Assembly: GCA_035628335.1 (NCBI GenBank)
Contig: DASPKA010000026.1
Coordinates: forward strand, 1-46,065
Reading direction: 5' to 3'
DNA: 46,065 nt
Origin: Patescibacteria group bacterium
Lineage (GTDB): Bacteria; Patescibacteriota; Doudnabacteria; UBA920
This document shows, one piece after another, positions 3,850-33,464 of this stretch. The notes beneath the pieces are model-generated. The model saw only the letters and a program-made list of their open reading frames with translations, was not told the DNA's origin and made no database searches. Positions within the stretch are counted from its first letter, which is position 1, and every line of letters starts with the position of its first letter. The position numbers and the translations under genes are program-made.

Positions 3850-5244
3850 ATGAGTATGAAAAAGACTAAAATTGTATGCACAATAGGGCCGGCTAGTGAG
3901 TCGGTTAAAGTCCTAACAGAAATGGTAAAAGCAGGTATGAATGTTGCTCGGTTGAATTTTTCCCATGGGTCCTATGAGAATCACGCCAAGCTTATGGAAA
4001 ACATCCGTAAGGTGTCCCAAAAGCTTAAAACTCCGATAGGGATAATGCAAGATTTGCAAGGGCCAAAGATTCGTATTGCAGAACGAAAAGAGGCACTTAA
4101 GATAGCGCCAGGGGATGTGCTTATGTTAGGAGTAGACTTTCATACGGATGTGAATATTATAAAATTTTTAAAGCCTGGCCATAGGATACTGATTGAAGAT
4201 GGTACTATTGAGCTGAAGACGCTTAGAATTGTAGGTGCTCATAAGGCAGAGGTAGAGGTAAAAAATGGAGCGCTTATTCAGTCTCACAAAGGCGTGAATT
4301 TGCCTGACAGCCAAGTTAAGCTTGGGTCACTCACTGAAAAAGACAAAAAGGATTTAGAGTTTGGGCTCAAGAATGGAGTTGACTTTGTGGCAATATCGTT
4401 CGTTTCCACTGTAACAGATGTTCTTGCGGTTAGACGGGTCCTTGCTAAACATTTCCGAAATGGAGGGGTACAGCCAAAGGTGATAGTTAAAGTAGAGCGT
4501 CCCGACGCTGTGAAAAATTTTAAAGAAATTTTGAAAGTTTCGGACGCTGTAATGGTTGCCCGAGGTGATTTAGGTGTAGAAATAGACGACTCAGAAGTAC
4601 CGATAGTGCAGAAGGACATTATATTTGCCTGTAAAGAGGCAGCGAAACCAGTAATTGTGGCTACTCAAATGCTTGACTCTATGGTCCGAAGCCCAAGGCC
4701 TACGAGAGCTGAGGTTTCAGATGTGGCAAATGCAGTAATGGACAAAACCGACGCTGTTATGCTCTCAGGTGAGTCTGCGTTTGGCAAGTACCCGATTGAG
4801 TCTGTCCGGGAAATGGCGAAAATCATAACTTCTACTGAAAAGTCTAGGTACAACCGCCCGCACCCGGAGTTAGTAGAGAGTCCCGCGCACGAGACGCTTG
4901 CAGACCAAACAGCAAGTGCCGCCTGCGAGCTCGCACAAAAGTTAAAAGCTTCTGCAGTGGTTTCTGCGAGCGAAACTGGCTTTGCTGCACGTTTTCTTTC
5001 GCGTCAACGACATAACTTAGACGTGTTTGTGTTCACCCCAGATGAAAAAGTACTTCGACAGCTGGCGTTGCTTTACGGTATTCATCCGTTGCTTTCAGCA
5101 GCCAAAACAATTCCTGAGATGCTGGCACTAGCTCCTACATATTTGCGAAAACATTACTTTGTAAAAAAAGGCCAGCAGGTAGTCCGGGTCGCGATTAAAG
5201 GGACAAAAAAACACCCCTCATTTGTGGATGTTGTAAAAATTTAG
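3850..5244 (+). CDS. pyk: Pyruvate kinase
   Basis: KTKIVCTIGPAS N-terminus, ARLNFSHG, MVARGDLGVE and the VATQMLDSM motifs. The length is typical, and a GGTGGTGA SD lies 8 nt upstream. Confidence 0.92.
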   Translation: MSMKKTKIVCTIGPASESVKVLTEMVKAGMNVARLNFSHGSYENHAKLMENIRKVSQKLKTPIGIMQDLQGPKIRIAERKEALKIAPGDVLMLGVDFHTDVNIIKFLKPGHRILIEDGTIELKTLRIVGAHKAEVEVKNGALIQSHKGVNLPDSQVKLGSLTEKDKKDLEFGLKNGVDFVAISFVSTVTDVLAVRRVLAKHFRNGGVQPKVIVKVERPDAVKNFKEILKVSDAVMVARGDLGVEIDDSEVPIVQKDIIFACKEAAKPVIVATQMLDSMVRSPRPTRAEVSDVANAVMDKTDAVMLSGESAFGKYPIESVREMAKIITSTEKSRYNRPHPELVESPAHETLADQTASAACELAQKLKASAVVSASETGFAARFLSRQRHNLDVFVFTPDEKVLRQLALLYGIHPLLSAAKTIPEMLALAPTYLRKHYFVKKGQQVVRVAIKGTKKHPSFVDVVKI

Positions 5245-5540
5245 TTTTTCTGTCTTATGTGCTTTGTATACTCCCCGACATTCATTTCCATAGCAGCGTT
5301 AGCAGTAGGGTAGTATGAGCTTACGCTCCATGGCTCTAAAGTCTCAATTCCAAGAACATTATTTTCTTTATCTAAAAAAACTACATCAATCGTAAAACAC
5401 ATAAAAAATGTATGTACTTGCTTGCAAGGTGTAAAGGCAAGCCAGGTATTTGTAGGTAACGATCGCTTGCCAAGTAAGCCTATCATCCGTTTCCAGAATG
5501 TGTTTGCAACAATAATTCTAGGTTCCATAGATGTAATCAT
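5241..5540 (-). CDS. DUF192 family protein
   Basis: The KRMIGLLGK...L pattern and the FTIDVVFLD / AMEMNVG pattern fit DUF192. The track start at 5552 lies inside the upstream terminator palindrome, so Met at 5540 or 5528 is more likely. Its stop overlaps the convergent pyk stop. Confidence 0.55.
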   Translation of the reverse strand: MITSMEPRIIVANTFWKRMIGLLGKRSLPTNTWLAFTPCKQVHTFFMCFTIDVVFLDKENNVLGIETLEPWSVSSYYPTANAAMEMNVGEYTKHIRQKN

Positions 5541-5547
5541 ACAAAAA

Positions 5548-5575
5548 GCCATAGACAGCTGTCTATGGCTTTTTT
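5548..5575. terminator. Bidirectional terminator: 11+11 perfect palindrome gccatagacag|ctgtctatggc flanked by an A-run and a T-run
   Basis: Read directly. It lies immediately downstream of the metalloprotease gene on the minus strand. Confidence 0.6.
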
Positions 5576-5577
5576 AC

Positions 5578-6276
5578 TTATATTTTGTTTGTACAGTAGT
5601 TTTTTAGCAGTTTAATGTCAGCAGCTTTCAGGGTTGAAGGTTGGTTTTCAAGGCTTCCGGTTTGGGCGGACATAATCGCTCCGTACGTTTTAGTGTGATC
5701 GAGGCCAATAGCGTGACCTAGCTCGTGTAGCAAGGTGGACTGCAGGTCAGTGTCACTCATATACGCAAGTACGTTTATTTCTTTGCCCACGAGTTTACCT
5801 TTTGAACGTTTTTCAAGGTACTGGCCTAGCTTAATGTTAGTAAGTAGAGTAGCTTGTTTAGTGGCGGGATTCACTCCCGACGCTGAACGAGCGTACTCAC
5901 TAGGAGTTGTTCTGTTTTGTGCGAGTACCACACTGTTAAGAGAGGTAAAATAGTTATTAAGAGCAACTTGGTTTTCTCCATACTTCATATTCACAGAGAG
6001 CATAGAGGTGTTGTCTTCAACTAAAACTTGAGCTCCAGCTGCAGTGTTCCATGCGCGGGCAGCAGTGCGAACCATGCTAGCAAACTTTTCTTGGCTCATA
6101 CCAAACTGGGGGTCAACGGAACCAACTTTATAGGTAACAGAGGAAACAGTGGTGCATGGGTTTGAAGGAGTTACAATAACCTTCTTCTTTTTTGCAGCAC
6201 TCGCCAAAGACAGTGGTACTGAGAGAAGTACCAGTGCAAGAAAACATATGGAGAATATTTTTAGAATGCGGTTCAT
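5578..6276 (-). CDS. Secreted matrixin-like (M10/metzincin) zinc metalloprotease
   Basis: Signal peptide (ILKIFSICFLALVLLSVPLSLASA) and the HELGHAIGLDH zinc-binding motif (HExxHxxGxxH). Confidence 0.75.
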   Translation of the reverse strand: MNRILKIFSICFLALVLLSVPLSLASAAKKKKVIVTPSNPCTTVSSVTYKVGSVDPQFGMSQEKFASMVRTAARAWNTAAGAQVLVEDNTSMLSVNMKYGENQVALNNYFTSLNSVVLAQNRTTPSEYARSASGVNPATKQATLLTNIKLGQYLEKRSKGKLVGKEINVLAYMSDTDLQSTLLHELGHAIGLDHTKTYGAIMSAQTGSLENQPSTLKAADIKLLKNYCTNKI

Positions 6277-6296
6277 ATATGGGAAAGGAGATTAAT

Positions 6297-6343
6297 AAAA
6301 CAAAACAGACTTGAACATCTTTTGTTTAAGTCTGTTTTGTTTT
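6297..6343. terminator. Strong bidirectional hairpin (16-bp stem aaaacaaaacagactt / aagtctgttttgtttt)
   Basis: Perfect inverted repeat directly downstream of flp on the minus strand. Confidence 0.7.
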
Positions 6344-6370
6344 ATTTAGAAGATTTTTTTGAGTTCTAAG

Positions 6371-6583
6371 TTATTTACAATCAGGGTTCGCAGTTGCGTT
6401 TGTGCTGGCTTCAGCTGCTTTTGTGCTTTCTAAACATTTACTTGCGCTAGAGAACTTGTTTGCAATGTCAGCTCCAAACTTAGAGATCACGCCAATAGCT
6501 ACAACTGCTATTAAGGCAAGAATAAGCCCGTATTCGGCTAGGGACTGACCAGATTCGCTCTTTAAGAAATTTCGTAAGGACAT
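6371..6583 (-). CDS. flp: Flp/Fap-family type IVb pilin precursor
   Basis: Leader ending in G followed by QSLAEYGLILALIAVVAIGV (the G/xxxxEY Flp processing motif plus a hydrophobic helix). 70 aa. Confidence 0.85.
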   Translation of the reverse strand: MSLRNFLKSESGQSLAEYGLILALIAVVAIGVISKFGADIANKFSSASKCLESTKAAEASTNATANPDCK

Positions 6584-6678
6584 AAATGAGGATAATTAAT
6601 AGTGTAATATAGCATTAAAAGTTAGTTTTGTCAATATAGTTAAGACCTATGTATTATTTTTTGCTTATACAAGACCTT

Positions 6679-7215
6679 TTATTCTATAACATTTATTGCG
6701 GAAACCGGAATTCCTTGGCAGAAGATATTTGAAGTACCGGTTACGCTGGCAGCAATAACTGCATAGGAGTCTGGCGGCAGGTTGAATTTATACCCCATTA
6801 CCTCAAAGGAGTTTGTTGCTTTTCCAGCATTCTGCACGGCAAACTTAGAACCTGCTTTCATTTGAGATGACCCTTTTTGGGGGACTATTTTGCAGTCTAC
6901 AAACTGGAAGCTCCTGCCTTGATCACGGAAGCTTGTAATTGTAGAGTCATACACGCCATTAAGCCGAACTACTGTTGCGGAGGGAGTTGGTTTTGAAAGA
7001 GTTTTTTTCGGAGTAGGTACCGCAGCTGGGGGTGGTGAGCTAGTTTTCGGAGCAGGAGTTTCAGGGGTTGCAGAACCAACAAGCTTTACCAGCGGTTCCT
7101 GTGGAATAGGCTTAGTTGGGACAGTAAGTAATGAAGTAGGATGTAAGGCGATCCAAACCATGACAGTAGAAGCAAGTAAGGCGGCAGTGATAATATATTT
7201 TTTAAAATTAGTCAT
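6679..7215 (-). CDS. N-terminally anchored envelope protein with a Pro-rich linker and a beta-rich C-terminal domain (hypothetical)
   Basis: TM helix, then PETPAPKTSSPPPAAVPTPKK. The C-terminal alternating pattern (KAGSKFAVQNAGKATNSFEV...) is faintly cupredoxin-like but has no obvious metal ligands. It overlaps the upstream gene by 8 nt. Confidence 0.5.
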   Translation of the reverse strand: MTNFKKYIITAALLASTVMVWIALHPTSLLTVPTKPIPQEPLVKLVGSATPETPAPKTSSPPPAAVPTPKKTLSKPTPSATVVRLNGVYDSTITSFRDQGRSFQFVDCKIVPQKGSSQMKAGSKFAVQNAGKATNSFEVMGYKFNLPPDSYAVIAASVTGTSNIFCQGIPVSAINVIE

Positions 7216-7831
7216 GAATCTTGGTGATTAATAGCTTCATGATTTCCGGGTTTAGCCCAGCAACTGCAAACCCTTTTGGGATATTTACCGTGGTTTGGTC
7301 ATTAAGTGAAATTATTTTCAGATCTTTAAAGACTGCTGAGTCCTGAGTTTCAGTAAAAGTCACCAGAAATTCTCCATTCCCGCTAAGAAAGCTGTTGTCG
7401 TTTGGGAAAGCTGTGACTTCACGAATATTCGAGCCAGCACGGTTTGAAAGAAAAGTCCTGTTTTCTGCGGTTTGCCAGAGAAGATGTGAGCAGTTGAGGG
7501 AAGTTACTACTCTGAGTAATGCGCTATCATGCAGTGACCCATCTAAAGTAGTTTCAGTAAACGCAAGTGAGCTGTCATCTGTGGTGAGGGCGACTACTTC
7601 TGTGATTTGTGGGTCAGTAGAAATGCGGCGAATATAGGCACAGGGGGTACGCTTGAACAACTCATCAAACGTCATAAAGCCCTTGGCTTTATAAACTTGA
7701 ATTGTTTCTGCAGAGAGGTTTGTAAATTCAACAAACCTAGAATTAGTCATAGGCCCTGAGATTAATGTGCGAGCGTATATCCCTCCAGCAAGTACCAGTA
7801 GCCCCAAAAAGACAAGAATTGCCTTTTTCAT
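7208..7831 (-). CDS. Signal/anchor-bearing hypothetical envelope protein (207 aa)
   Basis: N-terminal hydrophobic segment MKKAILVFLGLLVLAGGIYA and a 4-nt overlap with the upstream gene. No family recognised. Confidence 0.5.
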   Translation of the reverse strand: MKKAILVFLGLLVLAGGIYARTLISGPMTNSRFVEFTNLSAETIQVYKAKGFMTFDELFKRTPCAYIRRISTDPQITEVVALTTDDSSLAFTETTLDGSLHDSALLRVVTSLNCSHLLWQTAENRTFLSNRAGSNIREVTAFPNDNSFLSGNGEFLVTFTETQDSAVFKDLKIISLNDQTTVNIPKGFAVAGLNPEIMKLLITKIHD

Positions 7832-8868
7832 TTCACTGCTCCTTGAGGACGGCTCCAGGTCATATCTGCATATTTTCCGAAATTAAGTGTACCGTCACCG
7901 TTTACAGTGAAAGGGACCTTTCGGGGCTGGTAGGTTTCAACGCCATTGCGGTTCGTTATATTGCCATTTTTTTCACTCAGTGTAAAGTTCTGTTCTACTA
8001 CTTCTACATAGCCTTTTTTCGGGGTTTCCATGACAGTATTGGTAGCAATCATGATATGTCCATACCGTCCAAAACCCGCTACCCCAGCCATAAAGTCGCC
8101 TGCCGTTGGCAACTCTTTACTTTTACCAGACTGGAATGTTCTAAGTCCTCTGTCTTTATAGGTATTACCTTGGTCGCTTTTATCTACATGACCAAGAACA
8201 AAGGAAGCCGCATTTCCTTTTAATAGGGTCCCAGTAGTGAGTCGTTTATAATCGTCTGGATATTTGTCTTTCCATATAGTTAAGACATACCGAGTGATAA
8301 GGTCTTTGCATTGGTACTTGACTAAACCTTTTAAGTCTCCAATACGTGAGTTGTAAAAAACTTTAACTCCCTCTATAGAACCTACGGTCTCAGGAAGTGA
8401 GTTTGTTGGAGCATAGACTTTCCCGTTTTTTGGAATTGCTGAGACAAAGCTTGCCGTGCTATTTTGTAAGACGCTTCTCATATGAGTTTCTTCAGCCGCA
8501 TACGCAAGTGGGATAGGGTTTGCGGTATAAGGGAAAGGATTTGTCGTCCTGCGGTAGAGACCAGCTAGAAAGGCCAATAGTAATAGTAGTGCTGCGCCAA
8601 AAGTTAGGACTTGTGGGCTAGGTAGTGAAGTTTTTAGAGAATCTCTCACTGAATTTTCAGTTCTAGGACCTACACAGTAGGGTTCACAGAACCTCTGTTC
8701 ATAAGTTTTTTCTGTAGAGAAATCTTCGCTACTGCTGTTAGTTTTATATTGCGTTGCCCTTTTTTCTTGGGACTGTATTTGAAATGAGTTGGTTTGGGCA
8801 AGTGCAGGTTGCAGAAGAAATAAAGCTATAACCACACTGAGTCCCAGGCGTGTTATGAACGATCTCAT
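7828..8868 (-). CDS. Membrane-anchored CHAP-domain peptidoglycan hydrolase (amidase/endopeptidase)
   Basis: Signal peptide plus a second TM (FGAALLLLLAFLAGLY). The C-terminal domain carries the YQCKDL (Cys nucleophile), AGDFM, GHIMIAT and VEQN motifs characteristic of CHAP. Confidence 0.6.
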   Translation of the reverse strand: MRSFITRLGLSVVIALFLLQPALAQTNSFQIQSQEKRATQYKTNSSSEDFSTEKTYEQRFCEPYCVGPRTENSVRDSLKTSLPSPQVLTFGAALLLLLAFLAGLYRRTTNPFPYTANPIPLAYAAEETHMRSVLQNSTASFVSAIPKNGKVYAPTNSLPETVGSIEGVKVFYNSRIGDLKGLVKYQCKDLITRYVLTIWKDKYPDDYKRLTTGTLLKGNAASFVLGHVDKSDQGNTYKDRGLRTFQSGKSKELPTAGDFMAGVAGFGRYGHIMIATNTVMETPKKGYVEVVEQNFTLSEKNGNITNRNGVETYQPRKVPFTVNGDGTLNFGKYADMTWSRPQGAVK

Positions 8869-10481
8869 ATGAGGTTTTCTTTCTTCTTATTTAATGTCTT
8901 TTTTATAGTTGCATAGGTGCCGGTCAGCCCCGCACCGGTTATTCCAAGAAGTCCTGCGGTACCTATGCTACCGTCAAGGTCAGCTGCGACACGAGTGCCA
9001 TCTGGTAAGTCTAAGTATGCTTGGCCTTGTGTGTAGTCAAAGTGCAGTGGCTGGCCGCTTTGTTGACTGAGCTTCTGGAGATCTGCGAGGCTAATTTGTT
9101 TTGAGCTTCCCACAAAGCTGCTTCCTGCGTTGGTATTCGTACTGTTTTGTAACGCGGCTGGTGTTGGCTGTGAGGCGGTAGATACCTGTGTCTGCTTAGC
9201 GGCTTGGCTTGTACTGTTACCCGTGCTTGAGTTGGATGTGGTGTTTGATACCTGATTTTTCGCCACACTCTGTTCTTTTCGTTCTAGCGCATTTTCACGT
9301 GCTTTGAGGGTCTTATCTTTTTCTTGCAGCGACTTTTCAGCATCTGAAAGTTTTTCTACGGCTCTGTCTATTTTTTTGTTAGCTTCCTGTTGGTCTAGGT
9401 TATTTTTTTCCTGTGCATCTGCTATAGCTTTCAGTCTTCGGGCCTCTGCTTCATTTGCTCTTTGAATTTTTGCTTGTTCTGCTGCTTGCTCGGCTAATGC
9501 TGCTTTTTCGCGGCGCAGCGCATCTTGGGCTTCAGATATTTGTGTTGAGTCTATAGCTGTTGTAGTTCTGGTTGTCTTTGAGGTCTGGTTCACTGCCGGA
9601 GTCGAAGTGGTACTCGGAGCAGTTCCTTGGTTTCTGTTGAGCCACAAAGGTACTAACCAGCTTGCAGTTGTACCCACAGCGTCAACGAGTTTCTTTATCT
9701 TAGGAGCATTTTTTATAAGGTAGCCTCCAGCACGGTACAGTGATCTGCCAGCCATCCATGCTCCCCGAGCTAATACCAATGCGCTTGCCCACGCATACTG
9801 TGCGGCTGCGATGACTGCGCCTATAACCGCAGGAAGTCCAAATGTAAGTACGCAAACCCCCACTACTAATGCAGTTACCACGACCGCGGTAATGATAGGG
9901 TGTTTTTTTGCAAAGTTGATTACAGGCCTTACGACATAGTTATGTACTGGCTTCAGTATTTTGTTATACGTCCATTTCAGCACGGGTGATGTCACGTTTT
10001 TAATACTCCGCCCAATTTGCTTGGCTGACTCAATCGGGTGTGTAAATACTTGTTTCGTAGCCCCCCAGAGAGCGCGAGGAGTGAACGCAGACCATATACT
10101 GATTTTTTCGTTACTTTGACCAGCTTGTTCTGCAGACATAGTACTTTGGGTTGTTGAGGCAGATTGTCCTCCTATTTCAGTACTCCACGGCACTTGGGTT
10201 AGGGGAACTATGTCTTTTGCACGCACAGTGGTATTTACGTTTGCTCCACCTTGCTGCCAGTGAGTACGGTTTGCTCTCGCATTTGCGTTTTCGTCTTTTT
10301 CTAAACTCATTTCTGTGTTTTCGTATGAACTTTCGATTTTGTAGGGAGGGGAAATAAACACTTTCTCAGTTGCCGCACTGGCTGGGCTCAGCACCGAGCC
10401 ATAAAAAAAGATGCCTAAAAACAGCATCCAAAAAATAACTATTCCTGTCCGCTTGTGGCGGGCAAAAAAACGCATGGTCAT
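8865..10481 (-). CDS. Large multi-TM protein with a central ~90-aa charged coiled coil and S/T-rich low-complexity regions (hypothetical)
   Basis: It has an N-terminal signal/TM and two adjacent central TM helices (HPIITAVVVTALVVGVCVLTFGLPAVIGAVIAAAQYAWASALVL). The coiled coil reads AQDALRREKAALAEQAAEQAKIQRANEAEARRLK...KEQ. It is the first gene of the minus-strand operon. Confidence 0.55.
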   Translation of the reverse strand: MTMRFFARHKRTGIVIFWMLFLGIFFYGSVLSPASAATEKVFISPPYKIESSYENTEMSLEKDENANARANRTHWQQGGANVNTTVRAKDIVPLTQVPWSTEIGGQSASTTQSTMSAEQAGQSNEKISIWSAFTPRALWGATKQVFTHPIESAKQIGRSIKNVTSPVLKWTYNKILKPVHNYVVRPVINFAKKHPIITAVVVTALVVGVCVLTFGLPAVIGAVIAAAQYAWASALVLARGAWMAGRSLYRAGGYLIKNAPKIKKLVDAVGTTASWLVPLWLNRNQGTAPSTTSTPAVNQTSKTTRTTTAIDSTQISEAQDALRREKAALAEQAAEQAKIQRANEAEARRLKAIADAQEKNNLDQQEANKKIDRAVEKLSDAEKSLQEKDKTLKARENALERKEQSVAKNQVSNTTSNSSTGNSTSQAAKQTQVSTASQPTPAALQNSTNTNAGSSFVGSSKQISLADLQKLSQQSGQPLHFDYTQGQAYLDLPDGTRVAADLDGSIGTAGLLGITGAGLTGTYATIKKTLNKKKENLI

Positions 10482-10641
10482 ATTATTTTGTCACAGCTCT
10501 TTTCTTCTATAAATTCGCGAGGTACGATCGTGTTAATAAAGTGTTTCGCGCCGTACCTAACAGTGCGCTTATATGCAGGCTTATGCCACAAAGGAACTAT
10601 GTATGTGAAGTTATTATAGGTAATATAGCTACTGTGTCAAC

Positions 10642-10670
10642 TTTACAAAGGAGTATTAAAATTGTATAGT
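10642..10670 (+). promoter_or_regulatory. Candidate sigma70-type promoter for the tad operon (TTTACA, 17 nt spacer, TATAGT)
   Basis: Hexamers read directly in the 200-bp divergent intergenic region. They would give a very short 5' UTR for ATG 10681. Confidence 0.35.
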
Positions 10671-10680
10671 TTTTGACCGT

Positions 10681-11181
10681 ATGAGGCCCACACAATTAGC
10701 TATGAAACAAGAGGGTCAGAGCGTGCTTGAGGCAGCTCTTGTGACTATTGTTTTAGTTCCGGTTTTGTTGTTTATATTACAGATATTTTTTTGGCTTGTG
10801 GCTACCTATACGGTAAACCACACGGTACGACAAGCGGCGTCAGTGATACAAGCAACGGGAAACCCTGAGCTGGCTCGACGAGTGATAGAAGAAAATATGC
10901 GCTACCTGGACAGAGACTTTGATGTAGCAGAGGCAGTGAGTCTTACAGTGACAGACAATTTCGGCGCTGCTAAGTCCAACCCCGCATGGCCCAAGAATGG
11001 CGGAGAAGCTAAGTGGTTTAGAGACATCCATGACCCAACACGTTTTGGTATTCGCCTGGACTTAACTTACAAAATGCCAGGTTATTTATTAAAGCTTGGT
11101 GATAGGTTAACTCAGGTAAGATCTTCAGCCTGGGTACCATTTGGCTGCCAATCACCCGACAATGCAACACCCTGTTCCTAA
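10681..11181 (+). CDS. TadE-like pseudopilin
   Basis: N-terminus GQSVLEAALVTIVLVPVLLFIL matches the TadE N-terminal pattern (processed G, then E plus a hydrophobic helix). Confidence 0.65.
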   Translation: MRPTQLAMKQEGQSVLEAALVTIVLVPVLLFILQIFFWLVATYTVNHTVRQAASVIQATGNPELARRVIEENMRYLDRDFDVAEAVSLTVTDNFGAAKSNPAWPKNGGEAKWFRDIHDPTRFGIRLDLTYKMPGYLLKLGDRLTQVRSSAWVPFGCQSPDNATPCS

Positions 11182-12169
11182 CAAACAATCTGGTGTGTAC
11201 CTTGTGATCGCTTCGGTTTTAATTTTTTTGCTTGTTTCAGTTTTTGTGTTTTTGTTTTACACAGTACAGATCAGGGAGCGGCAGCAGGGTATAAAATTAG
11301 TTGCTACAGAAGCTTTGGATGCTGGGTTGAGTATGATGCAGAGTATTGTTTTGGACCGGGCAGTGAAATATAGCACTGAGTACAACAGATTACAAAAGTC
11401 TGGGTTGAAGAATATTCGTCCTTGCTGGGGATACCTGCCAGACCCCGCAGGAGCAAGTATAAATCCATTTTTTTACCTTGATAATTACGACATCGCTAAG
11501 TTATATGACTTAGAAGGAAAAGCAGGAAAGTTCAGGTCCCTTGGAGGACATATGGAGAATCTCGTTGTTCCTGCAGTTTCAGCTGATAATACCTCCTGGG
11601 CGTGCGGAACTGGCAATACAGATACACGCACACCGCGAGCATTTGCGTTTCAAGATGTTAAGCTCGTTCCCTGCGGTATATCAGTATGTGAGGTCAGGTT
11701 TGACCGTTCACTTCCGTTTAAAGAACCAGAACCCTACATGCTGTGTTACGGCGAGCCGTACTATGAGTGTGTGAAAGAAACAATTTTTATTTCTCTCAAG
11801 TTTCAACTTCAAACAAAAATAGAAGAAGCTCCCACACCAACTGACGCAGAGTTTTGGCAACAGGTTTTGGACTCAGTAAAAAAAAGCGAACATACCGAGG
11901 AGGTTGTGAAACTTACAGAATACACCGGTGCTGCGTGGCAGGACTTTGATTGCCATTCTAAAATAAATGCCTCTGTTGATACCCTTGGTAACCCACAAGT
12001 GCCGGTGCTCGGTATAGAAATACGCTTAACAGCACCATATAGAAGTTTGTGGAAACCTCCTACGAAAAACGGAACCATGCTTTCAGTGGGAGATGTAGTT
12101 AGCGGTCAGCTAAATTTATGTCCAACGGATACGCTTAAATATACGACAATTAACATTATTGCCCCATGA
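11162..12169 (+). CDS. TadG-like Flp pilus-assembly protein, Cys-rich extracellular domain
   Basis: N-terminal SGVYLVIASVLIFLLVSVFVFL...RQQGIKLVATEALDAGL resembles the TadG N-terminal domain. About 10 Cys residues. The track start at 11141 overlaps the upstream gene more deeply. Confidence 0.5.
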   Translation: MQHPVPNKQSGVYLVIASVLIFLLVSVFVFLFYTVQIRERQQGIKLVATEALDAGLSMMQSIVLDRAVKYSTEYNRLQKSGLKNIRPCWGYLPDPAGASINPFFYLDNYDIAKLYDLEGKAGKFRSLGGHMENLVVPAVSADNTSWACGTGNTDTRTPRAFAFQDVKLVPCGISVCEVRFDRSLPFKEPEPYMLCYGEPYYECVKETIFISLKFQLQTKIEEAPTPTDAEFWQQVLDSVKKSEHTEEVVKLTEYTGAAWQDFDCHSKINASVDTLGNPQVPVLGIEIRLTAPYRSLWKPPTKNGTMLSVGDVVSGQLNLCPTDTLKYTTINIIAP

Positions 12170-12951
12170 AGCAAATTCTAGAGAAAATTAAACAATCCAT
12201 GCGTTCAATTAAGGTCCAGCTTACTACTACGCTTGCTGACCCAGAAGAGTTGTCCAAGTTTAGAAGGCAGCTGCAGGCACAATTACTTACTGCTGTGCTT
12301 TTAACCTTGGTTGCAGCTGGTGTGTTTCTATATTGGGCTGAAGGCCTTAAGTCTAAGTACACGCCGGTACAAGTAGTTGCAGCAAATCATGATATTCAAA
12401 CTCCGTGGAAACTTAAACGAAGTGATATAAAGTTTTTGACTATTCCACAAGAATCTTTGCCTGCTGATGCCATACAGCCTGAACATCTGGACAGCGTGCT
12501 TGGTCAAGTGCTGGTGCATAACTTTTCAGAAAATCAAGTGTTGACGAGGAACTCATTTTTGCCAAACACTCCAGCAGATGTGGTAGGTATGAAAATTGAG
12601 AGAGACTATAAGGGCATGGCAATCTCTACAGCCTGGTTTGACGGAAATTATCCTTCACTGCGTAGAGGTGATACGCTAACTTTTGTTATCACTATAACCG
12701 AAGAGGGTAAAGCGCCAGAAGTCCAGTTGCTCGGGCAACGTATTGAAGTGTTAGACGTTATTGCTGGTTCAGAAAAGCAGCCAAGTACGCTCTTGATTAA
12801 AGTAAACGAAGCGCTCTCGAATAGTATTCTACGCGCTCACGCCTCCCGAAACGTTTCATTGCACGCACTTGTCGACGGCTACAAGCCACCGATAGGGGAT
12901 CCGGTAGCAGAGCCTATGGCAGTTTCTGGTACAACAACAAACCCTAAATAG
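12166..12951 (+). CDS. cpaB: CpaB/RcpC-like Flp pilus assembly protein (TM plus SAF-type domain)
   Basis: Single TM followed by VQVVAANHDIQTPWKLKRSDIKFLTIPQESLP (SAF-like). ATGA overlap with the upstream gene, and the position inside the tad operon fits. Confidence 0.6.
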   Translation: MKQILEKIKQSMRSIKVQLTTTLADPEELSKFRRQLQAQLLTAVLLTLVAAGVFLYWAEGLKSKYTPVQVVAANHDIQTPWKLKRSDIKFLTIPQESLPADAIQPEHLDSVLGQVLVHNFSENQVLTRNSFLPNTPADVVGMKIERDYKGMAISTAWFDGNYPSLRRGDTLTFVITITEEGKAPEVQLLGQRIEVLDVIAGSEKQPSTLLIKVNEALSNSILRAHASRNVSLHALVDGYKPPIGDPVAEPMAVSGTTTNPK

Positions 12952-12953
12952 TT

Positions 12954-13520
12954 ATGTCTAAGCATACACGAATGGTAGGACAAGCGCTTCCAGAAACTGC
13001 TCTTACACTATTAGTGATTATTCCCCTTCTGTTGCTGGGTTTTCAGATCTCGTTTTGGGTTTTTGCCAGTCAGATTGTTCATTCCGCTGCGGTAGATGCT
13101 GCGGTAGTTGCTGCGAATACAGGTAACCCTGACTTAGCAGATCGGCTTATAGCAGGAAGAGTGAGTTTGCTTGCTTACCCAAACACTAAGCGAGTTCTGT
13201 TTTCAGAAAATTTTTCTGTTACCTACTTTCTCAGTAAGGACGGAGTATTTACAGACGTACCATGGTCAGGGAATGCGGTAGCGTGTATTCAAAATCCGAA
13301 CACTATACCTCGTTGGGTAGATCTCGGTAAAGACACACGCTGTACTTTTGTAAAAGGTGATGGGGTGGTAAAGATTTCTATATCTTACCGGTTACCAATG
13401 AATCTGTGGCTTAGTTGGTTCGACAAAACCCAAGCAGATGCAACCGCATATATAGTGTGTCAGCCTACGAAGATTGATGACGACCCACGTATGCCATTTT
13501 GTGAAAAATTTAAATACTAA
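12954..13520 (+). CDS. Second TadE-like pseudopilin
   Basis: N-terminus GQALPETALTLLVIIPLLLLGF fits the TadE pattern. Paired cysteines in the C-terminal part. Confidence 0.6.
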   Translation: MSKHTRMVGQALPETALTLLVIIPLLLLGFQISFWVFASQIVHSAAVDAAVVAANTGNPDLADRLIAGRVSLLAYPNTKRVLFSENFSVTYFLSKDGVFTDVPWSGNAVACIQNPNTIPRWVDLGKDTRCTFVKGDGVVKISISYRLPMNLWLSWFDKTQADATAYIVCQPTKIDDDPRMPFCEKFKY

Positions 13521-13522
13521 CT

Positions 13523-14734
13523 ATGAAGATACTTCTTAAAAATAACACTACACTAGACGAGCTGCACGCAGCAGTAGTTTTTGAATTAGAACGAAAGGGT
13601 AGTATATTGAGCCCTCAAGCGGTTGATGAAGTTCTTATCACTTTACTGCAGACAGATCAAGCGGATTTTTCGCATTTGAGAAAGCGGCTACATAACAGGA
13701 TTTTTAGTTTTGGTGTGTTAACAGATATTCTTACGGACCAGGAAGTCACAGAGGTTATGGTGAATGGCCCAGAGCATGTATATATAGAGCGCCAAGGTAT
13801 TCTTTCTCGAGCAGATGTTCGTTTTGAGTCTGAAGAGGAACTGCTTATGGTCATAAACAGAATTGTTTCAGAAGTCGGGCGGCGTGTAGACGCAAGTCAG
13901 CCTCTCTGTGACGCACGGCTCGCAGATGGTAGTCGTGTAAACGTTATTATTCCTCCTTTGTCTTTAGTTGGTCCGGTTTTAACCATACGCAGGTTTCCCA
14001 AAAATGCGATGAATTTAGAAGATTTAGTGATCAAGGCGTCACTAAGTCCAGCTATGGCTGAGTTTTTGCGGGCATGTGTAAGGGCTAAGCTTAACGTAAT
14101 AATCTCTGGTGGAACCGGTGGCGGTAAAACAACCCTCTTAAATGCGCTGGGTTCAGAAATTTCAAAAGCAGAGCGTTTGCTTACCATAGAAGACTCTGCA
14201 GAAATGAAGATTGACCACCCGCATTTGATTTCTCTAGAGGCTCGTCAGGCAAATATAGAAGGGCAGGGGGAAATACCTATTCGTACGTTGGTGAAGAATG
14301 CTCTTCGTATGCGACCGGACAGGATTATAGTAGGGGAGATTCGTGGAGGAGAGGCGCTAGACATGCTGCAGGCTATGAACACAGGACACCAGGGCAGCTT
14401 AACTACAGTTCACGCAAACGCGCCACTCGAAGCACTCTTTCGAGTTGAAACTATGTGTTTGATGTCTGGTGTGGAGCTTCCGCTTTCTGCAGTCCGCCAA
14501 CAGGTTGCGCAAGCAGTGCATGTCATTGTTCAGCAGGAGCGCTTGTCAGATGGTAACAGGAAAGTGACGTCTATATGCATGCTTGAACCAGAGTGGCAGA
14601 ATGGGTTTGTATTGCGTGAGCTTTGCAAGTTCGACAAAGTTACTGATCAGCACGTGTGGACAGGTGAAACACCAAACCGACTTCAGCTGTTTGAGCAGGC
14701 AAAAGTTATCATTCAACCGGAGTGGTTTGCATGA
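13523..14734 (+). CDS. tadA: CpaF/TadA-family secretion ATPase
   Basis: Walker A GGTGGGKTTLLNAL, Asp/His boxes (RPDRIIVGEIRG, GHQGSLTTVHAN), ~400 aa. Confidence 0.9.
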   Translation: MKILLKNNTTLDELHAAVVFELERKGSILSPQAVDEVLITLLQTDQADFSHLRKRLHNRIFSFGVLTDILTDQEVTEVMVNGPEHVYIERQGILSRADVRFESEEELLMVINRIVSEVGRRVDASQPLCDARLADGSRVNVIIPPLSLVGPVLTIRRFPKNAMNLEDLVIKASLSPAMAEFLRACVRAKLNVIISGGTGGGKTTLLNALGSEISKAERLLTIEDSAEMKIDHPHLISLEARQANIEGQGEIPIRTLVKNALRMRPDRIIVGEIRGGEALDMLQAMNTGHQGSLTTVHANAPLEALFRVETMCLMSGVELPLSAVRQQVAQAVHVIVQQERLSDGNRKVTSICMLEPEWQNGFVLRELCKFDKVTDQHVWTGETPNRLQLFEQAKVIIQPEWFA

Positions 14735-15735
14735 AAATATTTAGAATAATTATAGGAATTTTTTCTTTCGCTGCGCTGAGTTATTCCGTTTATATTCTGT
14801 CTGGTAAAGTCTTTACGGCGTACGCTGCCGACCCCCTGCTTCCCTGGGTCGTTGTTTGCATGGCTGCTACAGCTGCGCTTTTGGCAATTTTTTGGTTTGG
14901 GTTGTTTCGGAGTTTTTTTCGCGTGTATACGTTTAGGATGCGACTGCCTGCAAAGAAGGTAACAAGACAAGCCTCCTTTTGGCCTGCTCTAACAGCTCAG
15001 GAAAGGCTTGACTATGTGGGGGACCTCGTTGCAGAAAGTGGAATGGGAGAGCCTAAAGATAGAAATGCTCAAGCAATGGTTGTGGTAATTGCATTGCTCG
15101 TACTTTTTTTGCTCGACCAGTACTTTCTGTTTATGGGAGCAGTTGGATTATTAGCAGCTGGCATTGCAATTTTGCTCAATAGGCGCCGCAAGCGTAAAGA
15201 GATGCTTGTTCGTTCTTTTCCAATGTCATTAGAGATTTTAATCAGCTCGTTGCGTGCAGGATTTTCATTTCCACAGGCTATAACCGCTACTGCCCGTGAA
15301 AGTACGGGTCCGATGGCAGACGTCTTTAAAGCGCTTGTGCGTGCGTATGAGTACAAGTTTCCACTGCAGGAAGCAGTGAGGATACTTAGTGTGTATGTGC
15401 GTATGGAAGACTGGGATAACTTCGGTGACTGTTTACGTATCAATGCGAAAGTGGGAGGAGATATTATCCCTGCACTTGAAGCTTTGTCAAAAACCATTTT
15501 TCAACGTCAGGAGATTGAGAGTGAAACCAAGACAGCTACTGCATCTGGCCGCATGTCAGGAGTGATAGTTTCTGCACTTGCTCCGTTGGGTTGCTTCCTG
15601 TTTTACATAATGTCTCCCGAATATATTGCGCCACTCTTTACTACGACCTCGGGTAATATAATGCTCGTGCTTGCGCTTGGTCTTGAGCTCGCTGGTGCCG
15701 CTTGGATTTGGAAGATTACACAAATCGATTTTTAA
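14731..15735 (+). CDS. tadB: TadB-like type II secretion system F-family platform protein
   Basis: ATGA overlap with tadA. Polytopic membrane protein with a T2SSF-like cytoplasmic domain (SLEILISSLRAGFSFPQAI). Confidence 0.7.
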   Translation: MKIFRIIIGIFSFAALSYSVYILSGKVFTAYAADPLLPWVVVCMAATAALLAIFWFGLFRSFFRVYTFRMRLPAKKVTRQASFWPALTAQERLDYVGDLVAESGMGEPKDRNAQAMVVVIALLVLFLLDQYFLFMGAVGLLAAGIAILLNRRRKRKEMLVRSFPMSLEILISSLRAGFSFPQAITATARESTGPMADVFKALVRAYEYKFPLQEAVRILSVYVRMEDWDNFGDCLRINAKVGGDIIPALEALSKTIFQRQEIESETKTATASGRMSGVIVSALAPLGCFLFYIMSPEYIAPLFTTTSGNIMLVLALGLELAGAAWIWKITQIDF

Positions 15736-15736
15736 C

Positions 15737-16606
15737 ATGACCAAAATATTACTACACACTCCTATAGTCCTTACCCTGTTACTTGTACTGCCATTTTTAT
15801 ATGCGTTCATGAGAATTTCAGCATGGCCGGTAAAACTTGTAATGGGGCTGCGCATAGTGCCTGTATGGAACCGTAAAGTGCTAGAAAGATACTTAAGTTC
15901 TTACCAACCTTCAGGATTTTGGACTCCGTGGCTCAACGTCAGAGCTCTTACCACGCTCAGCGTGCAAATTAACTATGGGGGAGTGAGCTGGCAGTATATT
16001 GCCGGAGCAAAAATTCTTGCAGTTAAATATGGATTGGTATTAGGAGTACTGTGGTGGGTTATGGAAATGAGTGTGTTTAATGCTATGGTTGGCATTGCTA
16101 TTGCATTAACTCTATATCTTTGGCCAGAGTTTTACTTTAAGCGGAAGATTAATTCCCAGACTTTATACTTCACACGCACGTTAAGCAGCGTGCTTGACTT
16201 ACTTAAGATTCAGGTAGGTAGTGGCCTTACGTTAGAGCAGAGTATTGACTATATTTCTCGCACCAGAACAGATGCATGGGCGCATGAGATGGCAGTGGTG
16301 TCGCGTTTAAACAAGGCTGGATTTACGCTTGAAGCAGCTTTAGAGCGTGTGATGGAGCATGTACAAGTAGAAGACTTTGTACGGTTTGTAGGGTCACTAA
16401 AACAAGCAAAGACTTTGGGCGCAAGCTTGTCTAAAACCTTAGAGATACAAGCAGGGCTTATACGCCAACGGCGTAAACAGGCAGCTGAAGAAAAAGCCAA
16501 GACCGCTGCAGTGAGAATAGTGTTACCGCTCGTACTGTGCATTTTCCCCGCCTTGCTGATAGTCTTTTTGGGCCCCGCAATTTTAAGGTTAACCGGAGGT
16601 TTCTAG
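15737..16606 (+). CDS. tadC: TadC-like type II secretion system F-family platform protein
   Basis: ATG lies 1 nt after the tadB stop; the track ORF start at 15671 is an upstream extension. T2SSF-like segment (LDLLKIQVGSGLTLEQSI) and a C-terminal TM. Confidence 0.7.
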   Translation: MTKILLHTPIVLTLLLVLPFLYAFMRISAWPVKLVMGLRIVPVWNRKVLERYLSSYQPSGFWTPWLNVRALTTLSVQINYGGVSWQYIAGAKILAVKYGLVLGVLWWVMEMSVFNAMVGIAIALTLYLWPEFYFKRKINSQTLYFTRTLSSVLDLLKIQVGSGLTLEQSIDYISRTRTDAWAHEMAVVSRLNKAGFTLEAALERVMEHVQVEDFVRFVGSLKQAKTLGASLSKTLEIQAGLIRQRRKQAAEEKAKTAAVRIVLPLVLCIFPALLIVFLGPAILRLTGGF

Positions 16607-16643
16607 TTGACTTGGAGGGTTTGTAATGTTATAAAAGATAATC

Positions 16644-17099
16644 ATGATTTTCTTAGCCGCGCTAATTGCAACGGTGTACTGTTCCTACACTGACATTTTC
16701 TACCGTCGCGTTCCCAACCTCGTAGTAGGAGTCCTCCTGTTGCTCTCTTGTGTCGAGGTACTTCTGTATCCTGCACGGTTTTCCGATATAGGCTACGGGC
16801 TTGTATTCGGTTTGCTCATTGGATTTGCCTTTTATGTGCTTAAAGTCTGGGGTGCAGGGGATGCGAAGTTGTTTATTGCTGTTTCTGCCATTGTAGGCAT
16901 ATTCAGTTTCTTTAAATTCTTTTATTTTACTTTGCTGGCTGGTGGTCTTCTTGCGTTAGGTTATATACTTGCTCACGCTAGCCAAAGGCGAAAAGGGCAT
17001 GCATCGATCCTTTCACACTGGCTCGGGGCCGTGAAACGAGACATACCCTACGGAGTAGCAATCTCCGCCGGTATGGTGGCGCTAAAAATTTTCTCATAA
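16644..17099 (+). CDS. tadV: A24-family prepilin peptidase, TadV/CpaA type (no methyltransferase domain)
   Basis: Two catalytic Asp motifs, YTDIFYRRVPN and GAGDAKLF. 151 aa, polytopic. Confidence 0.8.
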   Translation: MIFLAALIATVYCSYTDIFYRRVPNLVVGVLLLLSCVEVLLYPARFSDIGYGLVFGLLIGFAFYVLKVWGAGDAKLFIAVSAIVGIFSFFKFFYFTLLAGGLLALGYILAHASQRRKGHASILSHWLGAVKRDIPYGVAISAGMVALKIFS

Positions 17100-18694: not shown

Positions 18695-19042
18695 ATGAAC
18701 ATGAATCCCCTAGTAAACATTTTATTACGTACTCTTGCAGTAGGAGTTGCTGCGTTTATTACTCCTGGAGTTGTTATTACCAGCATATTTTCAGCAATAG
18801 TTGTTGCAATTATCATTGCTCTTTTGAACCACTATTTAAAGCCACTGTTAATAATTCTGACTCTTCCCGTAACTCTCATTACTTTAGGTTTATTTATTTT
18901 AGTAATCAATGCCTTTATGGTATGGTTAACCTCTGCCATAGTCCCCGGCTTTGAAGTAACAGGTTTTTGGAGCGCTGTATTGTTTTCAATCTTACTCACC
19001 CTATTTAATTGGGCTTTTGCAGTTGAGGGAGATAATAAGTAA
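18695..19042 (+). CDS. DUF360 / YvlD-like 'phage holin family' 4-TM membrane protein
   Basis: The pattern LRTLAVGVAAFITPGV...LLNHYLKPLLIILTLPVTLITLGLFILVINAFMVWLTSAIVPGFEVTGFW closely follows the DUF360 consensus. Confidence 0.75.
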   Translation: MNMNPLVNILLRTLAVGVAAFITPGVVITSIFSAIVVAIIIALLNHYLKPLLIILTLPVTLITLGLFILVINAFMVWLTSAIVPGFEVTGFWSAVLFSILLTLFNWAFAVEGDNK

Positions 19043-20859: not shown

Positions 20860-21225
20860 ATGAGTACTAGCTATAAAGATTTGATTGTTTGGCAGAAAGC
20901 AATTTTGTTAGTTAAAAGTATATATTATACAACAGAAAAGTTTCCGAAATCTGAAATATTCGGATTAAGTTCTCAAATGAGGCGCGCTGCTGTATCTATC
21001 ACTTCGAACATAGCGGAAGGAAGATACAGGAGTAGCTCAAAGGAAAATAAGCATTTTTATTTGATTGCGTTTGGTTCTGGCGCGGAGTTGGAGACTCAAT
21101 TGATTATTTCAAAAGAGTTGGGATTAATTAAAGTTCCTGAATTTCAAGAATTAACTAATTTATTGGCAGAAGTAATGAAAATGCTAAATGTCTTAATTTC
21201 AAAGCTGTCATTGCCTAAAGCCTAA
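20860..21225 (+). CDS. Four-helix-bundle protein (23S rRNA intervening-sequence protein family)
   Basis: YKDLIVWQKA...FPKSEIFGLSSQMRRAAVSITSNIAEG...ELETQL is the family signature. 121 aa. Confidence 0.85.
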   Translation: MSTSYKDLIVWQKAILLVKSIYYTTEKFPKSEIFGLSSQMRRAAVSITSNIAEGRYRSSSKENKHFYLIAFGSGAELETQLIISKELGLIKVPEFQELTNLLAEVMKMLNVLISKLSLPKA

Positions 21226-32073: not shown

Positions 32074-32514
32074 TTATCTGGTTACAGAGACTGTTTGCCC
32101 AAGTTCAGCACTTGGTGCGCCTATGGTAATGCGTCCGTTACTGTCTTGTCGAGCGGTATAGCCGGTGTTATAATCTGTGGTTGAGGTCCATACTCCGGTA
32201 GAAGGGTCAACAGGTAATTGCGGAATATATGTTGGCACCAAACAGGCAAGGTTTACGGTGCTTGTACCCGTGCTTGCGATTGTAGAGGTTGCGGTTGAGA
32301 TAGAAGCACAGAGGGTTCCGCGGTTATCCGCCAAGTTTTGGCCTAACGCATTTAAGAGAGCACTGGCATCACTCCAGCGTTGTGCGTTTCTGGATTGTGC
32401 GAACTGGCGAGCTGGGTTAATTGCAATTAAAACAATTCCTGCGAGCAAGGCAATAATACCTATAACTACAAGGATTTCGATAAGCGTAAACCCTCGTTGA
32501 TTTGTTTTTTTCAT
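32074..32514 (-). CDS. Type IV (T4a/pseudopilin-type) major pilin precursor
   Basis: MKKTNQRG|FTLIEILVVIGIIALLAGIV is a class III signal with Glu+5. It is the last gene of the operon and has its own promoter. Confidence 0.85.
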   Translation of the reverse strand: MKKTNQRGFTLIEILVVIGIIALLAGIVLIAINPARQFAQSRNAQRWSDASALLNALGQNLADNRGTLCASISTATSTIASTGTSTVNLACLVPTYIPQLPVDPSTGVWTSTTDYNTGYTARQDSNGRITIGAPSAELGQTVSVTR

Positions 32515-32546
32515 ACTCTATTATATTTAATTTATAGCTTACGTAT

Positions 32547-32574
32547 ATTGTACCACACTATTTTAGATTAGCAA
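32547..32574 (-). promoter_or_regulatory. Candidate promoter for the major pilin gene (TTGCTA, 16 nt spacer, TGgTACAAT extended -10)
   Basis: Read on the minus strand in the 60-bp gap upstream of the pilin gene. Confidence 0.45.
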
Positions 32575-33000
32575 TTAGATTCCACAAGACGGGCCGGAGT
32601 ACGTTGGATTTTCAAGCCATGAAGTGATGGAGATTGAGCTATTGGTAAGGGATGCTGTAACTTGCAGATTAGTGTAAGAATCTTTATGTTTCGCTCTAGT
32701 TAATATAACTCTGGTCGAACCGGTTCCTACTGAGCATACTTTGCACCCAGTTCCCGCAATTGCGTCTAAAGTGATGGTTTGCCCACCACTCGCAACTGAG
32801 TAGGATGGGTTGTTAGCAACGTACAGCAAGGCTTCGTCAGCACACGCTTCAGCCAGGTACCTGCTAATTTTTTTATTTTCACGTGATATAACATTAAAGC
32901 GTGCAAAGAAACTTACCTGGCTCAATGCTAGTGTGATTATGAGGAGCACGGACATTAAAACTATAACTGATACAAGTGCTATGTACCCTTCTTGTTTCAT
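32575..33000 (-). CDS. PilX-like minor pilin / pilus assembly protein
   Basis: N-terminal MKQEGYIALVSVIVLMSVLLIITLAL is a hydrophobic pilin-like helix without Glu+5, as in PilX. Operon position supports the call. Confidence 0.5.
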   Translation of the reverse strand: MKQEGYIALVSVIVLMSVLLIITLALSQVSFFARFNVISRENKKISRYLAEACADEALLYVANNPSYSVASGGQTITLDAIAGTGCKVCSVGTGSTRVILTRAKHKDSYTNLQVTASLTNSSISITSWLENPTYSGPSCGI

Positions 33001-33464
33001 CTTGATGTGTAGTTTAATTGGTGGGCTATACCTTCAACCGTAACCGCTGCCTGAAGTTTGTCTGGCGGTCCGGTTGTTTTTGTGAACTGGACAGCATCTA
33101 CTTTAACTGCATAATTGTTAAGCAGGGTAGCAGTTGCCGTTCCTCTTTTAAGTGCCATGTTTTTGTTAGCGGTATCATAGCTAAACACGAGCGTAGTCCC
33201 CATTTTTTGTACGGTTAGGCTCTGAGTACTCGTGGCTACAGAAAAGCTCGTTGCCCCGTCTAACGCCCAGTTGATTTTTGAGAGTATGAAATTAGCCTCT
33301 TCTTGAGCGACTACATGGGATTGGGTTATTTCCGTATTTCGTATGATATTAGTAATACTGATAATAGACCCACCCATGATAAACGCAAATAGGGTAATGT
33401 ATATAAGCACTTCAATAAGGGTAAAACCATCAGTGCTTTTATTGCGGAGGGTTGTCTTGGTCAT
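32997..33464 (-). CDS. Minor pilin with a prepilin-type N-terminal cleavage/methylation motif
   Basis: KSTDG|FTLIEVLIYITLFAFIMGG. Confidence 0.75.
   Translation of the reverse strand: MTKTTLRNKSTDGFTLIEVLIYITLFAFIMGGSIISITNIIRNTEITQSHVVAQEEANFILSKINWALDGATSFSVATSTQSLTVQKMGTTLVFSYDTANKNMALKRGTATATLLNNYAVKVDAVQFTKTTGPPDKLQAAVTVEGIAHQLNYTSR

Follow-up and report, generated by a model that had tools for sequence, protein, structure and literature searches.

According to a 2025 structural study, no peptidoglycan hydrolase or lytic transglycosylase has been reported with Tad pili, in contrast to flagella, type IV pili and secretion systems (PMC12307814), and the passage of the Tad pilus through peptidoglycan is an acknowledged gap. 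The predatory Tad-like Kil machines are hypothesised to use a wall hydrolase that acts locally, but none has been identified (PMC8460266). The closest described enzymes serve other machines. The Gram-positive type IV secretion system (T4SS) hydrolases PrgK and TraG are anchored by a membrane helix and contain a CHAP domain; PrgK has a small anchored partner, PrgL, that targets it, and its CHAP domain, inactive as a hydrolase in vitro, has a regulatory role (PMC11323569). The type VIIb secretion system (T7SSb) of Staphylococcus aureus recruits a dedicated CHAP hydrolase, EssH (PMC13059805). Machine-linked, anchored CHAP hydrolases are already known elsewhere, but their pairing with a Tad pilus is unreported. 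Here we describe a candidate for such a pairing in a 46,065-nucleotide (nt) stretch of DNA, contig DASPKA010000026.1 of the Patescibacteria group bacterium assembly GCA_035628335.1 (hereafter, the window), in which four overlapping genes for putative envelope proteins of 538, 346, 207 and 178 amino acids (p538, p346, p207 and p178) precede the flp pilin gene. The reading that we favour, with a probability of about 40%, is that the p346 operon serves a Tad machine of the monoderm type as a lineage-specific accessory that is membrane-tethered and remodels the wall.

An initial annotation of the window had called p346 a membrane-anchored CHAP-type peptidoglycan hydrolase. Pfam CHAP (PF05257, of the NlpC/P60-CHAP papain-like clan) matched residues 186–294 at 16.8 bits (E 0.0096), short of the Pfam gathering score of 26, and the PHROGs endolysin family phrog_635 matched residues 178–300 with an E value of 1.8e-4. 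When phage genomes were searched by tblastn with p346, the best matches were non-significant and corresponded to the CHAP exon of staphylococcal phage endolysins. We aligned that phage sequence with the three PDB CHAP domains that it retrieves (LysK 4CSH, 8H1I and 6IST) and used the four as a reference set. Residues 157–346 of p346 aligned with these LysK-type domains in hhalign over 95 columns with a score of 43.7 (probability 89.3%, E 2.1e-6), compared to 13.0 ± 2.5 and a maximum of 20.7 for 200 shuffled p346 domains, and p346 alone exceeded 18.2 among the 64 open reading frames (ORFs) of the window that are at least 120 amino acids long. A hidden Markov model (HMM) built from the four CHAP sequences found p346 as its sole match among 8,090 ORFs (E 1.7e-4). 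These independent profile tests bear out the CHAP call as one of remote homology.

In the alignment, Cys187, His271, Glu292 and Asn294 of p346 fall on Cys54, His117, Glu134 and Asn136 of LysK, whose Cys-His-Glu triad has been established by crystallography and mutagenesis (PMC4126393). These positions fit the CHAP pattern, in which the catalytic Cys opens a helix, the His lies on a strand and the third residue is polar (Glu or Asn). The Cys of YQC and the His of GHI, which had been proposed as catalytic, are the residues that align with those of the crystallised enzyme. Of the residues that bind calcium in LysK, Asp45 and Asp56 are retained as Asp178 and Asp189. We conclude from these comparisons that p346 carries a genuine CHAP domain, extremely diverged yet with its catalytic set intact, from which we infer activity. 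An alternative is that the genes are fast-decaying or non-catalytic, the CHAP hydrolase activity having been lost and a structural or regulatory role, or none, being left. The extreme divergence of p346, which had no significant match in 1.84 billion representatives, would suit such a loss, as would the absence of the Asp47 calcium ligand and the example of the PrgK CHAP domain, inactive in vitro and serving as a regulator. However, all four catalytic positions are kept, the overlapping genes have unbroken reading frames and their codon usage is native; we consider a loss of activity highly improbable.

The hydropathy profile of p346 has two hydrophobic segments, at residues 1–26 and 87–105. 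The N-terminus resembles a Sec signal, with two Arg residues, a 12-residue hydrophobic core and an ALA/QT cleavage site, and is followed by a 60-residue loop with a CxxxC motif, a strong helix at 87–105 (mean Kyte-Doolittle hydropathy 2.35) and then RR. By standard topology rules, such a signal peptide followed by a second helix and RR would leave the CHAP domain in the cytoplasm (type I topology), where it would not cut the wall. The protein might then be an amidase or peptidase that acts on a muropeptide, a precursor or a machine component rather than on the assembled wall, and cytoplasmic CHAP and NlpC/P60-type enzymes do exist, the Gsp amidase domain being one example. A crude composition score, built from 16 cytoplasmic and nine exported domains of the window, points the other way: at +0.037, the p346 C-domain sits among the exported domains, which span −0.026 to 0.223, and above every one of the 16 cytoplasmic proteins (−0.148 to −0.040). 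For p538, p207 and p178, the ectodomains likewise fell within the exported range and outside the cytoplasmic one. The nearest relatives of the p346 domain are also wall-acting phage endolysin CHAP domains. The domain may lie on either side of the membrane, and its topology is the chief uncertainty of this analysis; a cytoplasm-facing enzyme with another substrate seems to us rather unlikely. The initial description of p346 as wall-cutting was overstated, since the topology rules that place the domain in the cytoplasm are contradicted only by the crude composition test.

The best argument for a functional link to the pilus, omitted from the initial annotation, is the embedding of the operon inside a complete Tad locus. 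Judged by family matches, the four genes lie in a complete secretin-less (monoderm-type) Tad/Flp locus at about 5241–17099 (Table 1), with an Flp that has the G/XXXXEY motif, TadV, TadA, TadB, TadC, CpaB and TadE-like pseudopilins. No secretin, TadD or TadZ was found in this locus with Pfam or NCBIfam, as expected for a monoderm-type envelope. The flp product matched Pfam Flp_Fap above the gathering score (E 1.8e-9), and its processing motif, G12/QSLAEY, would leave a mature pilin of 58 amino acids. Beyond flp sits a DUF192 gene. By tblastn, 36 of 80 TadA loci sampled across phyla contained a DUF192 homologue, in most cases immediately behind tadB-tadC. An association with Tad was noted in 2025, for a few Firmicutes only (PMC12786226); DUF192 would seem to be a gene of Tad loci that is widely conserved and has gone unrecognised. 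Since it recurs in Tad loci, the four genes are bracketed by Tad-associated genes: p346 is encoded between flp/DUF192 on one side and tadE through tadV on the other, with divergent, back-to-back promoters.

The six-frame ORF list reproduced the gene order and the coordinates given initially for the four genes and flp, all on the minus strand, as well as the overlaps of 4 nt between p538 and p346 (8865–8868), 4 nt between p346 and p207 (7828–7831) and 8 nt between p207 and p178 (7208–7215), and the gap of 95 nt between p178 and flp. With a codon model trained on 18 window genes of confident assignment, the annotated frames of p538, p346, p207 and p178 all scored positive (0.10–0.21 bits/codon, compared to 0.16–0.36 for housekeeping genes), and the non-annotated frames scored negative except for one weak antisense frame in p178 (0.075 versus 0.129). 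The four are real genes with native codon usage. No paralogues of them were found inside the window.

Table 1. Features of the Tad/Flp locus and its surroundings, by position in the window
Feature	Position	Strand	Basis or remarks
DUF192 (PF02643) gene	5241–5552	−	Pfam E 3.7e-15; far edge of Tad locus
Secreted M10 (matrixin-like) zinc metalloprotease	5578–6276	−	Pfam Peptidase_M10 E 1.1e-10; signal peptide
Terminator hairpin after flp	6294–6346	−	dG −26.1 kcal/mol, z −7.39; 23 paired positions
flp	6371–6583	−	Flp-type prepilin; Pfam Flp_Fap
flp promoter-like site in p178-flp gap	6606–6634	−	TTGACA, 17 nt, TATATT, TG extended −10; 11/12, sigma-70
p178	6679–7215	−	178 amino acids; N-terminal anchor; ORF list
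p207	7208–7831	−	207 amino acids; N-terminal anchor or secreted; 2 Cys; ORF list
p346	7828–8868	−	346 amino acids; CHAP-like C-terminal domain; ORF list
Putative CHAP catalytic core of p346	7969–8337	−	Residues ~178–300; profile matches
p538	8865–10481	−	538 amino acids; first gene of four-gene operon; ORF list
Four-gene operon promoter	10613–10640	−	TTGACA, 16 nt, TATAAT; 12/12 consensus matches
Divergent tad assembly operon promoter	10642–10670	+	TTTACA, 17 nt, TATAGT; 10/12
tad assembly operon	10681–17099	+	Pfam; NCBIfam for CpaB
TadE-like (first)	from 10681	+	Pfam
342-amino-acid protein of no recognised family	11141–12169	+	One N-terminal membrane helix
CpaB/RcpC-like	from 12166	+	NCBIfam pilus_cpaB E 1.9e-9
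TadE-like (second)	from 12954	+	Pfam
TadA ATPase	13523–14734	+	T2SSE E 2.8e-60
TadB	from 14722	+	Pfam
TadC	from 15671	+	Pfam
A24 prepilin peptidase (TadV)	from 16644	+	Pfam
Phage_holin_4_2 membrane protein	18695–19042	+	E 2.7e-29
23S rRNA intervening-sequence protein homologue	20860–21225	+	E 7.8e-38
Second type IV filament system	32074–37779	−	PilB-type ATPase, PilC platform, two N-methyl pilins

The four-gene operon and the tad assembly operon are separated by an intergenic region of 199 nt, in which the −35 boxes of their promoters stand back-to-back with 1 nt between them. A further promoter-like site occupies the gap between p178 and flp. By our own rough estimate, about 0.2 matches at 11 or more of the 12 consensus positions would be expected by chance in 6 kb on both strands, and both of the matches at this level (operon and flp) sit in the correct intergenic regions and in the correct orientation. 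We conclude that flp is very probably transcribed on its own, besides any read-through from the operon. With its own near-consensus promoter, its co-transcription with the operon is possible but not required, and the notion that the hydrolase is hard-wired to the pilin gene does not survive the presence of an 11/12 promoter inside the 95-nt gap. The hairpin after flp is stable, with none of 200 shuffles folding equally well, and the gap is unstructured, so the sole strong terminator comes after flp, in agreement with the initial annotation (z −7.4 at the hairpin, +0.24 in the gap). We found no Rfam element and no significant structure in the 5′ untranslated region upstream of the operon or of flp; apparent microRNA hits near flp were merely the terminator hairpin. 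A 10-mer, GCTATATTAC, is common to the flp promoter (6606–6615, minus strand) and the operon promoter (10620–10629, minus strand), forming the extended −10 of the former and falling in the spacer of the latter. This sharing could reflect a site for a common regulator or chance, for which our own estimate is about 0.02–0.05 expected occurrences.

That the operon and flp have separate promoters of their own would also suit an unrelated envelope or autolysin operon, with a general role in growth of the wall, in division or at the surface, which merely adjoins the Tad genes; PcsB-type systems likewise pair a coiled-coil membrane protein with a CHAP enzyme. Searches of 5.8 billion protein clusters with p346, p538 and p207 returned only the proteins themselves, and HMMER, run with the p346 C-domain over 1.84 billion representatives in full, returned only itself and one 2865-amino-acid protein. 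BLASTP traced the latter to chance similarities with an Ig-like repeat that add up and do not include the His. None of the four proteins gave a match in sequence searches of the PDB, nor did tblastn of all four against 160 Tad-type loci fetched via TadA; no other Tad locus examined has a LysK-type CHAP ORF or homologues of the four genes, which also counts for an unrelated operon. Three other contigs containing these genes (ENA, Logan and JGI) were 100% identical in DNA, so that no ratio of nonsynonymous to synonymous substitution rates could be estimated. As far as such searches reach, p538, p346 and p207 are ORFans, and the suggestion of an undescribed module is unsupported, given that the three proteins searched are ORFans and none of the four occurs in the 160 Tad loci.

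We also surveyed 48 loci from the monoderm lineages Firmicutes, Actinobacteria and Chloroflexi, taking the 109 ORFs between −8 and +7 kb of tadA that look exported. They matched 83 Pfam families. The 25 of these that were listed (at least two members each) include SAF/RcpC, TadE, Tad, thioredoxin-like and VWA, and no wall hydrolase family is among them; near tadA in these lineages, wall hydrolases are at most rare. Thioredoxin, DsbA and AhpC-like exported proteins made up 3 of the 109 ORFs and may serve the oxidative folding of Tad components in some monoderms. The absence of any peptidoglycan hydrolase family from those listed counts for an unrelated operon. On the other hand, Tad-associated genes flank the operon, with flp and DUF192 beyond one end and tadE to tadV beyond the other, and the operon and tad promoters stand back-to-back; we think it possible but doubtful that the operon is unrelated to the pilus. 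Two other origins were rejected: a prophage or mobile element, because of the housekeeping neighbours and native codon usage, and a disguised Gram-positive T4SS module, because there is no VirB4 or VirD4 and the only nearby ATPases are TadA and a PilB.

The region is the pilin-side arm of the Tad/Flp locus, with four translationally coupled envelope genes transcribed towards flp. If the operon is indeed an accessory of the Tad machine, p346 would most likely be a membrane-tethered peptidoglycan amidase or endopeptidase that opens or remodels the cell's own wall locally, allowing the Tad machine and the pilus to pass, in a manner like that of the membrane-anchored VirB1-type hydrolases of Gram-positive T4SSs (PrgK and TraG) and of EssH. 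The coiled-coil protein p538 and the anchored ectodomains of p207 and p178 could be scaffold, targeting or restraining partners. The presence of a Mur ligase gene in the window indicates that the organism makes peptidoglycan.

Several points weigh against this proposal. The functional link to Tad is one of position alone, in one genome: p346, p538 and p207 have no database homologue, and none of the four genes recurs in the 160 Tad-type loci. The signal peptide, second helix and RR of p346 would by standard rules hold its CHAP domain in the cytoplasm. The LysK calcium ligand Asp47, which is essential for LysK activity (PMC4126393), is Lys180 in p346, and the inactivity of the PrgK CHAP domain in vitro means that an intact triad is no proof of p346 activity. 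The flp gene carries its own promoter (11/12, with a TG extended −10). Finally, structure prediction gave no usable model for p346 or p207: single-sequence AlphaFold2 reached a predicted local distance difference test score (pLDDT) of 41.7 for p346, with about 30 in the CHAP domain, there being no homologues for an alignment, and 35.5 for the p207 ectodomain.

The architecture of the putative partners agrees with the initial description of a multi-spanning p538 with a coiled coil and S/T-rich tracts and of N-terminally anchored p207 and p178. Hydropathy analysis of p538 gave three strongly hydrophobic segments, including a signal-peptide-like N-terminus (ASA/AT) and a helix pair at 193–238; the protein also has S/T-rich linkers, a coiled coil of about 110 residues and a basic C-terminal tail, and its matches in Pfam, NCBIfam and PHROGs were coiled-coil noise only. 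p207 and p178 each have a single N-terminal hydrophobic segment, which in p178 is followed by a linker rich in Pro and then by some 90 residues of C-terminal domain that include two Cys; p178 matched no family in Pfam or NCBIfam. As had been stated, none of the four proteins resembles a canonical Tad accessory: no Tad-accessory family (RcpA/B, TadD, TadF, TadG or TadZ) matched any of them at E ≤0.1 in Pfam or NCBIfam, and the G/XXXXE pseudopilin motif before a hydrophobic segment is absent from all four.

We also weighed the idea that p346 and its partners attack a host bacterium, cutting its wall where the pilus makes contact, in episymbiotic attachment or feeding. The genome is a Patescibacteria metagenome-assembled genome (MAG), a secreted M10 protease gene adjoins flp, and Tad-like machines are required for contact-dependent prey lysis by Myxococcus (PMC8460266). 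Yet p346, with its strong membrane helix, is not freely secreted, and there is no recognisable delivery signal or toxin-immunity pair. The host-wall role raised in the initial annotation lacks specific support for the first of these reasons, p346 being membrane-tethered rather than secreted, and we hold it to be very unlikely. A bolder combination, to which we assign little credence, is that the four proteins form a pilus-coupled wall-breaching device in which a Tad-tethered CHAP enzyme, borne on p538 as a long coiled-coil stalk and with the two other anchored proteins as partners, acts where the pilus touches the host, on the host wall or on both walls. If this were true, an ultra-small episymbiont could open the envelope of its host, and in p346 a Tad system would have its first functionally linked peptidoglycan hydrolase.

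Other features of the locus deserve mention. The M10 metalloprotease gene starts 18 nt past the flp terminator hairpin, between flp and DUF192, and has no counterpart in the other Tad loci examined. In the assembly operon, the 342-amino-acid protein encoded between the first TadE-like gene and cpaB occupies the position of a TadG/TadF-like component; it had no match in Pfam, NCBIfam or PHROGs and has no G/XXXXE motif. Flp itself has an unusual C-terminal extension, in which Cys50 and Cys69 flank an S/T/N-rich loop with an NAT sequon. This resembles the disulfide loop of type IVa pilins, and typical short Flp pilins have no such loop.

TadA was at most 60% identical to the matches listed in GTDB species genomes, and its N-terminal half at most 56% identical to the metagenome matches listed (JGI). 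The nearest relatives among the matches listed came from Chloroflexota, Bacillota, Actinomycetota and predatory Bdellovibrionota-like MAGs. Patescibacteria was not the label of any of them, three having no taxon name. A TadB search of metagenomes gave no match. These TadA matches suggest that the Tad locus is rare or horizontally acquired in this lineage. The rest of the window is housekeeping in character (pyruvate kinase, RNase Y, YmdB, LeuRS, TsaD, TrmD and the Mur ligase). Among the housekeeping genes downstream of the Tad locus are those for a Phage_holin_4_2 membrane protein and a homologue of the 23S rRNA intervening-sequence protein. A second type IV filament system lies further along, with a gene for a 501-amino-acid LVIVD-repeat protein within its PilB/PilC cluster, so that type IV pilus and Tad pilus genes are both found within 46 kb of this genome.

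The lifestyle of Patescibacteria depends on pili. A putative CHAP enzyme with its catalytic set in place, encoded within a Tad locus, is a concrete candidate for the missing wall-opening function. Its value is limited, as the case is a lone and unconserved one from an organism not in culture and the CHAP domain could face either side of the membrane. It should be taken as an experimental lead and not as a general rule.

Among solved structures, the LysK/LysGH15 CHAP domains (4CSH and 4OLK) are the closest sequence model for p346: the QC...DLIT.YVL helix and the GNA, YGH and EQN motifs all align. Two insertions in p346 raise the Cys-His spacing from 63 to 84 residues, the amidase and SH3b domains of the endolysins are not present, and the p346 gene is chromosomal, with housekeeping neighbours, rather than in a phage. 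The T4SS hydrolases (PrgK of pCF10, TraG of pIP501 and VirB1-89K of Streptococcus suis) provide the nearest parallel in context. Like the putative p346 enzyme, they are helix-tethered CHAP hydrolases encoded within an envelope-machine cluster of a wall-bearing monoderm, with small N-terminally anchored partners encoded nearby. They differ in that their machine is a VirB4-type conjugation system and not a Tad pilus, in combining CHAP with an SLT, muramidase or LytM domain where p346 has CHAP only, and in having one anchor helix where p346 combines a signal peptide with a further helix; apart from membership of the CHAP fold family, they have no detectable sequence relationship to p346. EssH, too, is a CHAP enzyme genetically linked to a specialised export machine, which recruits it for passage through a thick wall. 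It is secreted through a signal peptide, whereas p346 retains its membrane helix, and the machines differ. With the canonical Tad loci (Aggregatibacter tad, Caulobacter cpa and Bifidobacterium tad), the locus described here shares the Flp G/XXXXEY motif, TadV, CpaB/RcpC, TadA to TadC and two TadE-like pseudopilins. It departs from them in having no secretin, TadD or TadZ, and in its arrangement: flp and the assembly operon point in opposite directions, and between them lie the four genes described here, one of them for the putative CHAP enzyme.

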